64,000 nt of DNA from an uncultured Methanomassiliicoccales archaeon (GCA_964634095.1 CAZWKY010000002.1:313-64312), one strand, 5' to 3'. Positions 10,784 through 17,906 are shown, numbered from the stretch's first letter. A program made the numbers and translations. Notes: generated by a model from the sequence alone, not told the origin.

Positions 10784-11821
10784 ATGATTAGGTTCGGTCC
10801 CGCAGGCATCCCGCTCTCTTGCAAAGGTCGCACTCTCCAGGACGGTATCGAGGACGTCCACAACCTCAGCCTCGGCGCTCTGGAGATCCAGATGGTCAGG
10901 GCCAACTCGTACACGAGGTGCCCGGACGATGAGGAGATCGGTATGACGCTCAAGGACATCCAGGAGGATTTCGTCATCGAGATCGTCAGGGACGGGGAGC
11001 CCATCAGCGACCCCGATGAGCCCATCGATGAGGACGACGACCTGATCTACATGCCCTCCGGAGTATCCAGGACCTTCGGGGAGCTCTACGGCATAGGGGA
11101 CATGGCCAAGAGGCTCGATGTCAACATGTCCATCCACACCCCCTACTACATGGACCTCGGATCCAACACCGAACTCACCGACGTCTGCCTGGACAGCATC
11201 AGGCATGCCGGGTTGATCGTCGATGCCCTGGACGGGGACATCGTCGTCACGAGCCTCGGACTCTACGACGACAAGATGGACCGCGAGGAGGTCGACAACA
11301 ACATCTTCGAGAACGTGGCCATGCTCATGGACTGGTGGCAGGGTAACGGACTGAAGCCCAGGCTCGGCGTGGAGATCACCGGCCAGCAGGATGTCTTCGG
11401 ATCCCTCGACCAGGTCCTCGACCTGTGCGATGCCATACCCGGTGTGGCCCCCGTCGTCAACTTCTCACACTATCATTCCCGTACCAACGGTTCCCTCGGG
11501 GAGACGGATGACTTCCTGAGCCTCCTGGAGCAGGTGGAGCCCTACTGCGACGGCAGGATCCACACCGCCTTCGCGGGAGTGGACTACATCGACGGCAACG
11601 AGAAGAGGCTCACCCCCATCAAGAAGGGCGACCTCAAGTTCGAATACCTGGCCGAGGCCCTCATCGAGATGAAGCCCAACGCCACCATCATCTCCACATC
11701 ACCTCTTCTGGAGCACGATGCGATGTACATGAGGGTCATCCATGAGAGGGTCCTCAGCAAGAAGGTGGCCAAGGACATCAAGGAGAGGAAGAAGGCCGAG
11801 GCAGCGGCCACCGGTGAGTGA
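10784..11821 (+). CDS. TIM-barrel protein, archaeal endonuclease IV-like family
   Basis: Motifs IRFGPAG, SIHTPYY, LGVEITG, NFSHYHSR, LEHDA. Contains an acidic insertion. Confidence 0.7.
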   Translation: MIRFGPAGIPLSCKGRTLQDGIEDVHNLSLGALEIQMVRANSYTRCPDDEEIGMTLKDIQEDFVIEIVRDGEPISDPDEPIDEDDDLIYMPSGVSRTFGELYGIGDMAKRLDVNMSIHTPYYMDLGSNTELTDVCLDSIRHAGLIVDALDGDIVVTSLGLYDDKMDREEVDNNIFENVAMLMDWWQGNGLKPRLGVEITGQQDVFGSLDQVLDLCDAIPGVAPVVNFSHYHSRTNGSLGETDDFLSLLEQVEPYCDGRIHTAFAGVDYIDGNEKRLTPIKKGDLKFEYLAEALIEMKPNATIISTSPLLEHDAMYMRVIHERVLSKKVAKDIKERKKAEAAATGE

Positions 11822-12359
11822 TTTGGACCCCCTGACCGACATCCTGGACAGATGTCGCTCCGCGGTCATGTCCGTGGAACCGTCCGCCAAGGATGCATTG
11901 ATAGATGCGATCCTCAGCAGCCGCAAGGTGTTCGTGTACGGTTCCGGCAGGTCCGGACTCGTCGGTCAGCTGTTCGCGGTCCGTCTGGTCCAACTGGGGT
12001 TGGACGTCCACTTCGTCGGTGAGATGACCACACCCATCATCGGGAAGGACGATCTCACACTGCTCATATCCAACACGGGGAAGACATCGTCGGTCGTTCA
12101 GACCGCGGTGATCGCCCGCAGGATAGGTTCCAAGATCATCTCGGTCACTGGGACGGAGAGTTGCGCCCTCTGCGATGTCACCGACGTGCCCATAATCCTG
12201 AGGACGGACCATGACGACGAGACCGCCAGGACCGCTCCGCTGGGGACGCTTTTCGAGGATTCCGCACTCCTTCTCTTCGACTGCATCGTGTGCGACATAA
12301 TGGAACGCGAAGGCATATCCGAGGAGGATATGCGCAACAGGCACGCGATATGGGTCTGA
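11814..12359 (+). CDS. hxlB: SIS-domain sugar isomerase (6-phospho-3-hexuloisomerase family)
   Basis: Motifs VYGSGRSG, ISNTGKT, APLGTLFE, RHA. GTG start overlaps the upstream stop. Confidence 0.8.
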   Translation: MSDLDPLTDILDRCRSAVMSVEPSAKDALIDAILSSRKVFVYGSGRSGLVGQLFAVRLVQLGLDVHFVGEMTTPIIGKDDLTLLISNTGKTSSVVQTAVIARRIGSKIISVTGTESCALCDVTDVPIILRTDHDDETARTAPLGTLFEDSALLLFDCIVCDIMEREGISEEDMRNRHAIWV

Positions 12360-13093: not shown

Positions 13094-13294
13094 ATGGCAG
13101 GACTGAGATTACCCGACCATTCGCACTGCATCTACTGCGGAGACCCCATACCGTTCGGAGAGGAATACTGCAACGGGGAATGCAGATCGAAGGAGGCGGC
13201 CCGTGCCGCATCCGAGAAGAGGCGGGACAACAGATTCTTCATCCTGTCCGGACTGACGGTGGTCGTCATCATCGCGCTGGGATTCATCCTCTGA
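13094..13294 (+). CDS. DUF2116-family Zn-ribbon membrane protein
   Basis: PDHSHCIYCGDPIP...YCNGEC followed by a C-terminal TM helix. Confidence 0.85.
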   Translation: MAGLRLPDHSHCIYCGDPIPFGEEYCNGECRSKEAARAASEKRRDNRFFILSGLTVVVIIALGFIL

Positions 13295-14078
13295 GTGCAG
13301 CGACCGTCCGGGCCACATTATGGACACGGACGATGTCCGATCCCGATTCCACGGAGATTCTGGCGGCCTCGGCGGATGCGTCGTCGCGGTCCATCCCCGG
13401 GAACTTCTCCGAGAGGAACCTCTTGCGGGACGAACCCATCAGGACGGGGTACCCGTCCGAGAAGAACGAACTGTTGCGGATGATCTCCAGATTCTGATCG
13501 AAGGATTTCCCGAAACCCACCCCGGGATCGAGGATTATCCTGTCCGGGGATATCCCCGCATCCAATGCGGCGGATGTACGTTCCCTGAGGAAATCCCTGA
13601 TGTCCTCCATGAAACCGTCACCCATCACCGATGTCTGCATCGTCTTCGGCATCCCGTGCATGTGCATCACCACCACGGTGACATCGGATCCCGCACAGGC
13701 CTCCAACATACCGTCGTCCCTCAGACCGTAGACGTCGTTCACGATGTCCACTCCCAGGCCGATGCACCTCTCCGCCACGGAGGCCTTCATGGTGTCCACG
13801 GACACCGGAACGTCTATGGACGGCAGGAGGTCCCTGAGAACAGGTTCCAGACGGGACAGTTCCTCCTCCGCACCCACGGAATCGGAGAACGGGCGGGTGG
13901 ATTCCGCACCGATGTCGATAATGTCCGCCCCCTGGTCCACCATGTCGAAGGCGTGACGGACCGCGGCGGAGGGGTCGGACCATGTGCCCCCGTCAGAGAA
14001 TGAATCGGGGGTCACATTGAGTATGCCCATAACGAGGGGTCCCCCCGAAAGGGTCCCCCTCCTGCATGGGACTTCCAT
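13284..14078 (-). CDS. folP: Dihydropteroate synthase (bacterial type)
   Basis: Motifs MGILNVTPDSFSDGG, IDIGAESTRP, DPGVGFGK, SRKRF, VRVHNV. Confidence 0.93.
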   Translation of the reverse strand: MEVPCRRGTLSGGPLVMGILNVTPDSFSDGGTWSDPSAAVRHAFDMVDQGADIIDIGAESTRPFSDSVGAEEELSRLEPVLRDLLPSIDVPVSVDTMKASVAERCIGLGVDIVNDVYGLRDDGMLEACAGSDVTVVVMHMHGMPKTMQTSVMGDGFMEDIRDFLRERTSAALDAGISPDRIILDPGVGFGKSFDQNLEIIRNSSFFSDGYPVLMGSSRKRFLSEKFPGMDRDDASAEAARISVESGSDIVRVHNVARTVAALRG

Positions 14079-15179
14079 TCACATCAACTCATCGATGACC
14101 TCTACGAGGTCCCTGACCTGGATCTTCCTGTCACCCTTCGCGGAATCGAGGTTGTTCACACAGAACGGACAGGTCGTGATGATGATGTCGGCGAAGGACG
14201 CCTCCTCGAGCCTGGTGGATGCGATGTCCATGGAGGTCTCGGGGTATGCGGACCTCACGCCTCCGCCGCCTCCGCAGCAGTGGCTGGTCTTGCGGTTGTA
14301 CTCCATCTCCCTGAAGTCGATACCGGGGATCTTGGAGATGACCTGTCTGGGTTCCTCGTAGATGCCGCAGTGCCTTCCCAGGTGGCAGGGGTCGTGGTAT
14401 GTGACGACCTTCCCGTCCAGAGGTTTGAGCTTCAGGTCCTGCTTGGCGAGGAACTCGGTGATGTGGAGGACCTCGAAGGGTACGTCCACGTACTTGGGGT
14501 ACTCGTGCTTGAACATCCTGTAGCATCCCGCGCATGCGAGGACCAGGGTCTCGACGCCGAGGGCCCTGATGCTCTCGACGTTCTTCCTCATGAGCTCGGT
14601 GACATCGTCCTGGGGCCATCCCACCCTCTGCATGACGGATCCGCAGCAGACCTCGTCGACGGTGGTGTAATCGGCACCGATCTTGTCCAGGATGGACATG
14701 GTGGCCTGTGCGGTCTTCTTGGACCTGTAGGTTCCGGTGCATCCGATGAAGTAACCGATCTTGGCGTTGTGGGGCTTCCTTCCGAGGACCTCCTGACGGG
14801 GGGCCTTCTCACCGAAGGGGTTGCCGGTGGCCAGGATGTTGTCGCACATGGCCTTGTGCTTGGGGAGGATGTGGCCGTTCTTCACGAGGTCGGCACGGCA
14901 CAGCTCGATGATGTCCACGATGTCGACCTTGGAGGGGCACCTCCTGACGCAGTCCGCACATGTGGTGCAGGTGTACATGTTCTCGATGACGGAGGGGTCC
15001 GCATCCAGGTCGCCGTTCAGGAGACCGTATGTGAGGATGATACGTCCCCTGGAGAGGGCGGAGTCCCATCCGACCGATTTGAAGGAGGGGCAGACACTCT
15101 TACAGAATCCGCACATCGTACATACGTTCACGGCGTTCCTTACTTTCTCAAGATTCTCTGTTCTGAAATCCGTCATCAT
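14079..15179 (-). CDS. HdrD/GlcF-like Fe-S oxidoreductase (2x[4Fe-4S] + 2 CCG domains)
   Basis: Motifs CTMCGFCKSVCP, CTTCADCVRRCP, VCCG..CAGC, HDPCHLGR..CCGGGGG..CPFC. Confidence 0.88.
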   Translation of the reverse strand: MMTDFRTENLEKVRNAVNVCTMCGFCKSVCPSFKSVGWDSALSRGRIILTYGLLNGDLDADPSVIENMYTCTTCADCVRRCPSKVDIVDIIELCRADLVKNGHILPKHKAMCDNILATGNPFGEKAPRQEVLGRKPHNAKIGYFIGCTGTYRSKKTAQATMSILDKIGADYTTVDEVCCGSVMQRVGWPQDDVTELMRKNVESIRALGVETLVLACAGCYRMFKHEYPKYVDVPFEVLHITEFLAKQDLKLKPLDGKVVTYHDPCHLGRHCGIYEEPRQVISKIPGIDFREMEYNRKTSHCCGGGGGVRSAYPETSMDIASTRLEEASFADIIITTCPFCVNNLDSAKGDRKIQVRDLVEVIDELM

Positions 15180-16417
15180 TCCACCTTCGGAATTGTCACG
15201 CTACCGTCCATGAGCACGATGACCCTCGCATCGGGCTTCTCCCTGAATGCCTCGGCCACCGCATCCGCCACTGTGGGGAACGGCGTTATGTTCGCGTTTG
15301 AGAGCAGCTCGGGGTCCAGGTCGGTGACAGCCCATATGGATGCCCATGTGGCGATCTCCGCCATCTTGGCCGCCTTGTGGTATCCGAGCTTGTACTCGGC
15401 CCTGAGGTTCTCGAGGACCTGGTTGGGGTCCTTCGAGGACGAGAGCTGTGTGAGGAAGGTCGCATGTCCGATGCCCTCCCTGCACTTGGAGACCATGATG
15501 ATCTTCCCACCCTCCTTCAGCGCCCACTTCCCGTTGTCGAGCGCCTTCTGTGACTGGTACAGGTCCACATCCATAGGGTAGGGTGCGACCGATATGACCA
15601 CATCCGCCTTCTCCGGGATCGGGACCGAGAAGACCTCGTTGGCCCACTCCACGGCCTGGTCGAATGCGGGGTTGAGGGCACCGGACGCCACCTTGTAGAT
15701 GTTCTGGTGCCTGTCCAGGACCATCTGGATGGAGAAGATTTCCTTGCCCTTCACGACAGCGAGGGCGTCCATCATGTCCTCGTGGACGGGGTTGCCCTCC
15801 AGCACGAGGGACTGGGCCTCCTTGTTCATGGCCAGCTTGTGGTTGGCCTCCACGGTCCTGAAGGATGCCACTCCGGGCAGGAAGGACTTCCTTCCGCCGG
15901 TATATCCTGCGAAGTAGTGGGGTTCCACCGATGTGATGATCACCAGACGGTCCGCGTCCACGGCGACCTTGTTGACCTCCATGGGGGTCCCGTTCTTCGA
16001 TGTGCCGAGGTTCACGCACTCGGATCTCTTGGCATCATGGCAGATGATGCGGTCCTTGAGCTCCTGGTAGTGGGATCCGAAGACGAAGTTGTACTCCTCC
16101 TCGGTCATATCCCTGTGGGTGCCGGTGGCGATGAGGTATCTGGCTGACCTGAGGTCCATCCTCTTGGACAGTGCGTCCAGAACCTTCGCCGTGGGCGTGG
16201 GGCGGGTTCCGTCGTTGACGATGAACACTATGTCCTCCCCTCCCTCCAGGAACTGCTCCATGGAGTCGTACCCTATCGGGTCGTCGATGGATGCTCCGAT
16301 GACCTCATCGGGGTCACCGCATTCCACATCCTTGGGATAGAAGGTTCCAATGTAGTTCTCATCGGGGATGTCCACTTTCTGGACCCCGTCCTTGCCGTAC
16401 TTCACATCGATGATCAT
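15176..16417 (-). CDS. larA: Nickel-pincer-dependent lactate racemase family protein
   Basis: Motifs NDGTRPTP, ATGTHR, ICHD, EPHYFAGYTGGRKS, NH, DLYQSQKA. Start trimmed to MIIDVKYG. Confidence 0.9.
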   Translation of the reverse strand: MIIDVKYGKDGVQKVDIPDENYIGTFYPKDVECGDPDEVIGASIDDPIGYDSMEQFLEGGEDIVFIVNDGTRPTPTAKVLDALSKRMDLRSARYLIATGTHRDMTEEEYNFVFGSHYQELKDRIICHDAKRSECVNLGTSKNGTPMEVNKVAVDADRLVIITSVEPHYFAGYTGGRKSFLPGVASFRTVEANHKLAMNKEAQSLVLEGNPVHEDMMDALAVVKGKEIFSIQMVLDRHQNIYKVASGALNPAFDQAVEWANEVFSVPIPEKADVVISVAPYPMDVDLYQSQKALDNGKWALKEGGKIIMVSKCREGIGHATFLTQLSSSKDPNQVLENLRAEYKLGYHKAAKMAEIATWASIWAVTDLDPELLSNANITPFPTVADAVAEAFREKPDARVIVLMDGSVTIPKVE

Positions 16418-16586
16418 GTAGACCGATTGGTCGATTGTATCCTCCCTTATAATATATGCGCGCACGAGGGCTCGGGTGCGTGAATACGAAGTCTATAAAT
16501 ACGGACCGACCCTCAACCCGATCGTGGGACGCTTAGTCCCGCGAACGGAAATGTGCCCCAGTGGTGAATCCGTAAAGGTGAGATAC

Positions 16587-17210: not shown

Positions 17211-17339
17211 TCCCCCTCTAGGGGTTGAAACCATTTACCTGCCCCCTGTGGGCAGGGCCATCTTCTCACACATCACCGTATCATGCTCCAAGGGTCGGTT
17301 CCAAATACCAGTGAACCGGTAGGGATTGAACGAGGAACA

Positions 17340-17906
17340 ATGTCACTCAATCCCCCAACAGTGAAGGACCGCACAGCGATCATAATCGTCGACATGCTGA
17401 ACGACTTCGTGACGGGATCGCTCAGATGCGACCGCGCACAGCGCATCATCCCCCCGATGCAGAGACTGGTCGAGGAGGCCAGGAGGAAAGGGGTCTACGT
17501 CATCTACTCCAACGATGCGCACATCAAGGGAATAGACAAGGAACTTGAGCTCTGGGGCGACCATGCCATCGCGGGGACCCCCGGTGCACAGGTCATACCC
17601 GAGATCGCACCCACGGACATCGACTACATCGTACCCAAGAGGAGGTACAGCGGATTCTACGGGACCGACCTGGAGATCCTCCTGGAGGAGCTCGGGGTGA
17701 ACACCGTCATCATGACCGGACTCCACGCACACATGTGCGTCAGACACACCACCGCGGATGCGTACTACCGCGGATACAACATCATAGTGCCCACGGACGG
17801 AGTGGATTCATTCACCGAAGAGGACTACCTCAGCGGGATAAAGTATCTGAAGGAGGTCTATGGCGCAGAACTGACGACCGTGGACGAACTCGTGAAACGT
17901 TTCTGA
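17340..17906 (+). CDS. Isochorismatase-family cysteine hydrolase (nicotinamidase-like)
   Basis: Motifs IVDMLNDF, HAIAGTPGA, KRRYSGF, GLHAHMCV. Confidence 0.88.
   Translation: MSLNPPTVKDRTAIIIVDMLNDFVTGSLRCDRAQRIIPPMQRLVEEARRKGVYVIYSNDAHIKGIDKELELWGDHAIAGTPGAQVIPEIAPTDIDYIVPKRRYSGFYGTDLEILLEELGVNTVIMTGLHAHMCVRHTTADAYYRGYNIIVPTDGVDSFTEEDYLSGIKYLKEVYGAELTTVDELVKRF

Follow-up and report, generated by a model that had tools for sequence, protein, structure and literature searches.

We analyzed a three-gene locus on the minus strand of a 64,000-nucleotide stretch of DNA from an uncultured Methanomassiliicoccales archaeon (GCA_964634095.1 CAZWKY010000002.1:313-64312; the whole stretch is referred to here as the window). 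The locus encodes a homologue of the LarA racemases, an iron-sulfur (Fe-S) protein resembling the heterodisulfide reductase subunit HdrD, and dihydropteroate synthase (FolP); the first two products may belong to a system that oxidizes 2-hydroxy acids. The organism is a methanogen of the Methanomethylophilaceae: its named relatives are Candidatus Methanomethylophilaceae, and McrA is encoded in its genome. A preliminary description of this DNA had reported three coupled open reading frames (ORFs) at these positions; the three ORFs were reproduced here, and both junctions were read from the sequence. The features of the locus, in window coordinates, are:

15176..16417, minus strand: larA, encoding a homologue of the LarA-family nickel-pincer nucleotide (NPN) 2-hydroxyacid racemases/epimerases (413 residues, P0001; Pfam, NCBIfam and PDB alignment)
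15176..15179, minus strand: ATGA overlap of the larA stop and Fe-S gene start codons (direct sequence reading)
14079..15179, minus strand: Fe-S gene, encoding an HdrD2-type protein (366 residues, P0002; Fer4 dicluster and two CCG domains, 18 invariant cysteines)
13284..14078, minus strand: folP, encoding dihydropteroate synthase (264 residues, P0003; Pterin_bind, TIGR01496)
16418..16475, no strand assigned: short, AT-rich divergent intergenic region between larA and rpl15e, containing TTATAATATAT (direct reading; L15e identified)

Positions 15176-15179 of the plus strand read TCAT, giving ATGA on the minus strand, where the ATG of the Fe-S gene (15179-15177) overlaps the TGA of larA (15178-15176). 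The second junction has no gap: plus-strand CATTCA at 14076-14081 gives TGAATG, so that the folP ATG (14078) directly abuts the Fe-S stop codon. Pfam analysis of the products revealed, in order, Lar_N with LarA_C, a Fer4 dicluster with two CCG domains, and Pterin_bind, and FolP scored above the dihydropteroate synthase equivalog cut-off (TIGR01496, 277.5 bits versus 162.6). The ATGA overlap is predicted to couple translation of larA and the Fe-S gene; in some genera the intervening stop codon is absent and the pair appears as a single ORF of about 780 residues. The divergent intergenic region is likely, we infer, to be the promoter region. Metatranscriptome Logan contigs from one animal-gut study, representing a strain about 95% identical, cover the three genes and bridge both junctions; they give a weak hint of expression, with transcript ends, strand and level not resolvable from contigs.

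The association of larA with the Fe-S gene, as noted in the preliminary description, was kept across the order and beyond it, and was fused in several genera. Sampling of 121 genomes across the order identified LarA orthologues in 117 and orthologues of the Fe-S protein in all 121, and the two genes were neighbours in every case checked. All 44 loci examined, which covered all seven families of the order, had the gene order larA-FeS-folP. The interval from the larA stop to the Fe-S start was compared in 33 loci, and ranged from an 8-nucleotide overlap to roughly 15 nucleotides apart within the order and from 14 to 43 nucleotides in two McrA-less sister families (f10 and f30); spacing this tight is not due to chance. 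One ORF of 781-792 residues replaces the separate genes in genera g4, g5 and g9 (L034:1489-3840, L035:403-2781 and L041:403-2748), and the fused state requires two to three changes on the LarA tree. Public protein data contained 16 LarA-FeS/CCG fusions, including AIZ55939.1 of Ca. Methanoplasma termitum, which its sources name HdrD or 'HdrD1 protein'.

A class-wide search of 251 genomes, using a natural LarA-FeS fusion as the query, revealed the adjacent pair at 46-53% identity also in f10 (30/30 genomes) and f30. Detection of McrA was confined to the window's own order (34/34 genomes); the remaining 217 genomes, among them those of f10 (0/30) and f30 (0/3), gave none. Because identically ordered pairs are encoded in families for which the McrA search was negative, heterodisulfide reduction, the function proposed in the preliminary description, cannot be the general function of the module, and these McrA-less relatives must use an acceptor other than the heterodisulfide of coenzymes M and B (CoM-S-S-CoB). 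The LarA and HdrD2 orthologues of a further family, f9, were unlinked, about 80 kb apart, and neither was near folP.

The surroundings of the pair were also conserved. In f10 and f30, as in many Methanomassiliicoccales, thiL and an AmmeMemoRadiSam radical S-adenosylmethionine (SAM) gene lie divergent from larA-FeS-folP (L058:4308-6294, L067:4555-6523 and L068:9474-11436), with AP_endonuc_2 and PHI-like SIS genes further on. In the window's genus rpl15e replaces thiL and the radical SAM gene beside larA, and the AP_endonuc_2 and PHI-like SIS genes are found downstream at 10784-12359. In this setting folP is probably a co-transcribed passenger, and the invariance of its place may come simply from slow rearrangement of a block of housekeeping genes with mixed functions. 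Some FolP proteins carry an N-terminal extension lacking a Pfam match, from about 35 residues in f7 to about 120 residues in f3 and others (L062:8680-10176, L058:8863-9756); FolP of the window has no such extension.

Analysis of LarA revealed matches to Lar_N (174.6 bits) and LarA_C (61.6 bits) that were both above cut-off and covered the full length of the protein. Its best NCBIfam match was malate racemase LarAH6 (NF052593) at 376 bits, under the 500-bit equivalog cut-off, and it scored 287 bits against the lactate racemase equivalog (NF033504), under 460. The best PDB match was the malate racemase Mar2 (6D6Z, 252 bits), with lactate racemase LarA at 202 bits. Lactate, the substrate favoured in the preliminary description, was therefore outscored by malate in both comparisons, with each equivalog cut-off missed; by best match the substrate would be closest to malate-like, and lactate and 2-hydroxyglutarate are also candidates. 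Malate racemases form the largest LarA group and are present in archaea (PMC11770544). In a separate observation, a protein encoded on a single 4081-nucleotide Joint Genome Institute contig (P0140) has a LarA domain 47% identical to that of the window fused to a citrate synthase domain, which may hint at a di- or tricarboxylic hydroxy-acid substrate or be a gene-calling artefact.

Alignment to 2YJG and 6D6Z placed H101, H167, K177, H193 and R72 of LarA at the positions of His108, His174, Lys184, His200 and Arg75, and Y287, Q288 and K291 at those of Tyr294, Gln295 and Lys298; all of these residues were invariant in 29 orthologues. We take Lys184 to be the cofactor tether, His200 the nickel ligand, His108 and His174 the acid/base pair, and Arg75, Gln295 and Lys298 the residues that bind the substrate carboxylate. 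The lysine and histidines that the preliminary description listed as NPN-binding were thus kept, with one reassignment: the histidine of its CHD motif (H127) is conserved yet is not the His108 equivalent, which is H101 in the motif GTHRD. H212 (NPVHED), which is lost in some relatives, was considered as the nickel-ligand histidine and rejected, as the 2YJG alignment puts the ligand at the invariant H193 (ANH). For supply of the cofactor, the genome encodes LarB (289.7 bits versus a cut-off of 175) and LarC, also above its cut-off, and within the order LarE exceeded its own cut-off in 58 of 61 genomes. With LarB and LarC here and LarE in most of the order, a working route to the NPN cofactor is plausible. 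Two genes from larA, the window also encodes an isochorismatase-family hydrolase (17283-17906, plus strand) with a weak nicotinamidase/pyrazinamidase match (52 bits); nicotinate leads to nicotinic acid adenine dinucleotide, the precursor of the LarA cofactor.

The Fe-S protein contains eight ferredoxin-type cysteines (C20/23/26/30 and C71/74/77/81) and ten CCG cysteines (C147/178/179/216/219 and C265/301/302/337/340), all 18 of which were invariant in the 29 orthologues; both CCG domains are intact, as first described. Pfam matches comprised two CCG domains (116 bits) and Fer4_8, and the protein has the two [4Fe-4S] ferredoxin motifs and two complete CCG motifs expected of HdrD. The genome has two full HdrD-like genes, that of the window and C28:13118-14254, whose products are 38% identical, and HdrBC as well. 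An exact-sequence look-up identified one of our comparison genomes (G006) as Ca. Methanomassiliicoccus intestinalis Mx1, in which the LarA-adjacent gene encodes AGN25649.1 and the stand-alone gene AGN25510.1. These are listed as hdrD2 and hdrD1, respectively, in the tables of Borrel et al. 2014, where the hdrD1 row also holds M. luminyensis WP_019178460 (PMC4153887), the protein that Kurth et al. 2020 (PMC7374477) give as HdrD in the Fpo-like:HdrD model. The Fe-S protein of the window is therefore the hdrD2 paralogue and not the hdrD1 of the Fpo-like:HdrD model, the M. luminyensis equivalence being taken through the table row of the paper. This assignment sets the protein apart from the HdrD that acts without HdrE in Methanomassiliicoccales, which the preliminary description had cited for this HdrD-like protein. 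The hdrD1 paralogue of Ca. M. intestinalis (L082:6993-10966) lies divergent from genes for NuoL- and NuoH-like membrane subunits, and the hdrD1-type gene in the window's genome adjoins an Lhr helicase gene (L081).

Two other family assignments were considered for the Fe-S protein. It missed the GlcF equivalog cut-off (97.6 versus 333 bits), and its best NCBIfam match was the thiol:fumarate reductase subunit TfrB (233.6 bits versus a cut-off of 385), which covered the HdrD-like C-terminal 360 residues. The TfrB match begins at profile position 125, and the N-terminal [2Fe-2S] part (positions 1-124) is missing from the protein. No TfrA/FrdA-type flavoprotein was found in the genome (no full FAD_binding_2 protein). 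The TfrB model also tops HdrD1 and the GlcD-linked relatives, and so does not discriminate. A TfrAB reading was ruled out on these grounds: there is no TfrA-type partner, and TfrB was the top sub-threshold match of every HdrD-like protein tested.

A partner of a different kind emerged from the relatives of the Fe-S protein. An exhaustive search with this protein gave 150 cluster representatives, and a tree of 166 HdrD-like sequences was built (quick search, LG+G4) that includes no experimentally characterised HdrD. In this tree the LarA-linked Fe-S clade falls inside a starred clade of 26 rows (99), and a link by fusion or adjacency to GlcD, the flavoprotein of GlcD-type 2-hydroxyacid dehydrogenases, was seen for 8 of its 11 non-orthologous members. 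Three are GlcD::FeS::CCG fusions (P0227, P0263, P0302), and five are encoded directly downstream of GlcD (L078, L104, L105, L109, L111). P0178, a tandem CCG fusion, has an unassigned gene upstream, and the contig of P0311 is too short to show neighbours. HdrD1 of M. intestinalis lies outside the starred clade; the position of HdrD1 rests on this row, the row own_HdrD1_C28, a wrong-frame translation, having been disregarded. A phylogeny, as suggested in the preliminary description, thus places the Fe-S protein with GlcD-linked relatives. These nearest relatives are subunits or domains of GlcD dehydrogenases, which makes a flavoprotein the most likely point of electron entry and argues against the earlier idea that electrons pass from LarA into the Fe-S protein.

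LarA itself recurs in these GlcD neighbourhoods. On metagenome contig L105, LarA, GlcD, HdrD-like and SucCD-like genes overlap in a single operon, in that order. At L103 a LarA 58% identical to that of the window lies directly upstream of a GlcD::FeS::CCG fusion, the GlcD part of which is 49% identical to the GlcD of the window's genome. LarA is divergent from a GlcD and HdrD-like gene pair in f23 (L074), precedes a GlcD-like gene in f21, and in f14 (L078) two LarA genes lie 4 kb from GlcD followed by the HdrD-like gene; within the order, one genome (G005) has a GlcD paralogue followed by an HdrD2-like paralogue. The SucCD pair of L105 (3743-5742), which resembles succinyl-CoA synthetase, may point to a C4/C5 dicarboxylate as the substrate.

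The window's genome was found to encode such a flavoprotein. A GlcD-type flavin adenine dinucleotide (FAD) dehydrogenase, the kind of D-2-hydroxyacid dehydrogenase that the preliminary description had suggested looking for, is present at C59:2787-4295 (TIGR00387, 432 bits, under the 568-bit cut-off), together with two more distant GlcD-type proteins. Orthologues of the C59 protein at 50% identity or more were present in 34/34 sampled genomes of the order, 29/30 of f10, 5/5 of f9 and 2/3 of f30, all counts from related, non-independent genomes. Its neighbours in the genome are a Schlafen/AlbA regulator, an M50 peptidase and DUF5131, none of which points to a substrate or transporter. Elsewhere, a 945-residue ORF with two FAD_binding_4 domains, resembling a GlcE and GlcD fusion, was observed on an mcrA-bearing contig (G000:C20:14663-17500, equivalent to L100:3663-6500).

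Taken together, the LarA::HdrD2 fusions, the GlcD::HdrD2-like fusions and the shared operons point to one system. We propose that LarA, GlcD and HdrD2 constitute a racemase-assisted D-2-hydroxyacid dehydrogenase with folP as a passenger, a reading to which we give slightly better than an even chance. The HdrD2-type Fe-S protein would most likely be the electron-output subunit of the GlcD-type D-2-hydroxyacid dehydrogenase encoded elsewhere in the genome. LarA, with its nickel-pincer cofactor, would interconvert the L and D forms of a 2-hydroxy acid, and the GlcD-type FAD dehydrogenase would oxidize the D form to the 2-oxo acid. The HdrD2-type protein would pass the flavin electrons via its two [4Fe-4S] clusters to the CCG site, which would reduce an acceptor, maybe a disulfide and in a methanogen possibly CoM-S-S-CoB. 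Both enantiomers of the acid could be oxidized in this way, and folP would be co-transcribed and functionally unrelated. In this lineage the flavoprotein gene would have moved away, leaving the racemase beside or fused to the Fe-S subunit. The sequences themselves show the gene anatomy, the conserved residues, the distribution, the fusions and the kinship of HdrD2 with GlcD-linked modules. Since GlcD is unlinked to the pair throughout the order, the three-way physical partnership is predicted from relatives; the direction of electron flow, the substrate and the acceptor are likewise predictions. For other archaea, a role in heterodisulfide reduction has been proposed for co-located GlcD and HdrD (PMC6421429), and by analogy CoM-S-S-CoB is a possible acceptor in this methanogen. 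The broader suggestion of the preliminary description, that electrons from 2-hydroxy acids feed heterodisulfide reduction, is retained in part: a hydroxyacid module with CoM-S-S-CoB as its possible acceptor is consistent with our findings, lactate as the donor is not indicated, and the Fe-S protein is not the hdrD1 of the energy model.

Several observations weigh against the proposed three-part system. The C59 glcD gene is not adjacent to larA-FeS in this genome or in the order, lying about 53 kb away in Ca. M. intestinalis and about 40-50 kb away in f10, and the co-occurrence counts given above overstate the support because of the relatedness of the genomes. The tree that ties the Fe-S protein to GlcD carries the limit already noted, in that no characterised HdrD anchors it. 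GlcD-type enzymes do not always need an Fe-S subunit, and GlcD could instead be served by the genome's other full HdrD paralogue (C28). The set of cofactor genes named in the preliminary description was recovered as LarB and LarC: a profile search of this 88-contig draft genome did not find LarE (the best match was GuaA), nor was LarE found in the near-complete genome G042. At the site occupied by LarE in a same-genus genome, an NcsA-type tRNA thiolase gene was observed (C9:20611-21552; L020:1078-2019). Finally, it is LarA and not GlcD that shares a polypeptide with the Fe-S protein, which a direct reaction from LarA to Fe-S would explain more simply. Complex prediction for LarA (A1) and HdrD2 (A2) returned no answer, with a score of zero, and provides evidence neither way.

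Such a direct reaction would make the pair a flavin-free dehydrogenase, with LarA acting here not as a racemase but as the catalytic head, from which the electrons of the nickel-pincer hydride would pass straight to the Fe-S/CCG protein and on to a disulfide (CoM-S-S-CoB in methanogens). It would account for the translational coupling and recurrent fusion of the Fe-S protein with LarA rather than GlcD, for the fully kept hydride-transfer active site, and for the near-universal occurrence of the pair in the order. Transfer from lactate/pyruvate (about -190 mV) to CoM-S-S-CoB (about -140 mV) is also thermodynamically feasible. Nevertheless, we judge this scheme distinctly unlikely. To our knowledge every characterised LarA-family member, whether racemase or epimerase, returns the hydride, and a net-redox LarA was not found in our literature searches, which counts against it. 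Passage from a hydride carrier to one-electron clusters normally requires a flavin, the nearest relatives of the Fe-S protein operate with GlcD flavoproteins, and orthologous pairs were found in genomes without detected McrA. The opposite possibility, that the two proteins have no functional link, is rather unlikely in our view. Here a stand-alone racemase and a second heterodisulfide reductase for methanogenesis (HdrD2) would be adjacent by inherited synteny in compact genomes, as suggested by their place within a larger conserved housekeeping block (thiL, AmmeMemoRadiSam radical SAM, folP and PHI-like SIS), by the separation of their orthologues in f9, and by the public annotation of the Fe-S protein as HdrD. 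Against it stand the recurrent LarA-FeS gene fusion, the stop and start codons that overlap or nearly abut throughout the order, the recurrence of the LarA/HdrD-like association with GlcD on unrelated contigs, and the orthologues in families where McrA was not found.

Two further explanations give the Fe-S protein a different task. The triad might make or reduce a pterin cofactor, for instance in place of an absent dihydrofolate reductase: the gene after the Fe-S gene is folP at all loci of the order as well as in f10 and f30, and no DHFR_1 (FolA) match was found in this genome although folP is present. We regard this as very improbable, as the LarA residues for the carboxylate of a 2-hydroxy acid are all kept, LarA and HdrD-like genes elsewhere associate with GlcD and not folP, the same conserved block also holds thiL and other unrelated genes, and in f9 the LarA and HdrD2 genes are both away from folP. 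Alternatively, the CCG protein could serve cofactor maintenance, keeping the oxidation-sensitive thiocarboxylate/thioamide nickel cofactor reduced or aiding its assembly, perhaps to compensate for a lack of LarE. CCG sites carry out thiol/disulfide chemistry, the Fe-S protein is fused to LarA, and LarE was not found here or in G042 despite LarA, LarB and LarC. Against this, LarE and the pair occur together in 58/61 genomes of the order, the Fe-S protein is related to subunits of dehydrogenases, and no precedent was found; we attach very little weight to it.

The new aspect of the proposed racemase-assisted dehydrogenase would be that a racemase, not a flavoprotein, is joined to the Fe-S subunit of a GlcD/Fe-S hydroxyacid dehydrogenase system, and no paper describing a LarA-HdrD link was found in the literature searched. 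Methanomassiliicoccales are major methane producers of the gut and rumen and are considered to be methyl reducers with a strict dependence on H2. Because the proposed hydroxyacid-oxidizing module is encoded almost throughout the order, an alternative electron input can now be tested. Should CoM-S-S-CoB be the acceptor at the CCG site, acids of the lactate or malate type, plentiful in guts, could act as donors; an alternative meaning would be the housekeeping clean-up of D-2-hydroxy acids. Public annotation of the Fe-S protein is HdrD or '(Fe-S)-binding protein', and a correction follows for energy models: neither the 'HdrD2' of these methanogens nor the 780-residue 'HdrD1' of Ca. Methanoplasma termitum belongs among their stand-alone heterodisulfide reductases. 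For the LarA field, the racemase-FeS fusions offer a natural protein in which to test net redox chemistry of the nickel-pincer cofactor. Were the flavin-free scheme true, the LarA superfamily would gain its first net-redox member, and 'obligately H2-dependent' gut methanogens a direct organic electron donor.

The locus was compared with several known systems. LarA resembles Mar2/LarAH6 (6D6Z) and lactate racemase LarA (2YJG, 5HUQ) in its two-domain fold family, its full-length alignment and all key residues, but falls below the cut-offs of all characterised subfamilies. It is also joined to an Fe-S/CCG protein by translational coupling or fusion, of which the LarA literature examined (PMC11770544) makes no mention. 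The Fe-S protein is like TfrB in its HdrD-like C-terminal part, and differs in having no N-terminal [2Fe-2S] region and no TfrA in the genome. With HdrD of the Methanosarcina HdrDE complex and the 'HdrD' of the Fpo-like:HdrD model it has in common two ferredoxin-type clusters and two complete CCG motifs; in contrast to the latter, it corresponds to hdrD2, differs in sequence from the hdrD1-type protein of its own genome, belongs to a GlcD-linked clade and has orthologues where McrA was not found. The GlcD-type dehydrogenases with an HdrD/GlcF-like subunit (GlcDEF and the E. coli YdiJ-type fusions) differ from the present locus in that here the flavoprotein gene is unlinked, a racemase stands in its place by the Fe-S subunit, and the GlcF cut-off is missed. 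They nevertheless share the same Fe-S architecture, with a GlcD orthologue encoded in the genome, and the same Fe-S/CCG architecture is found in the GlcD/HdrD pairs proposed in Methanomethylicia (PMC6421429).

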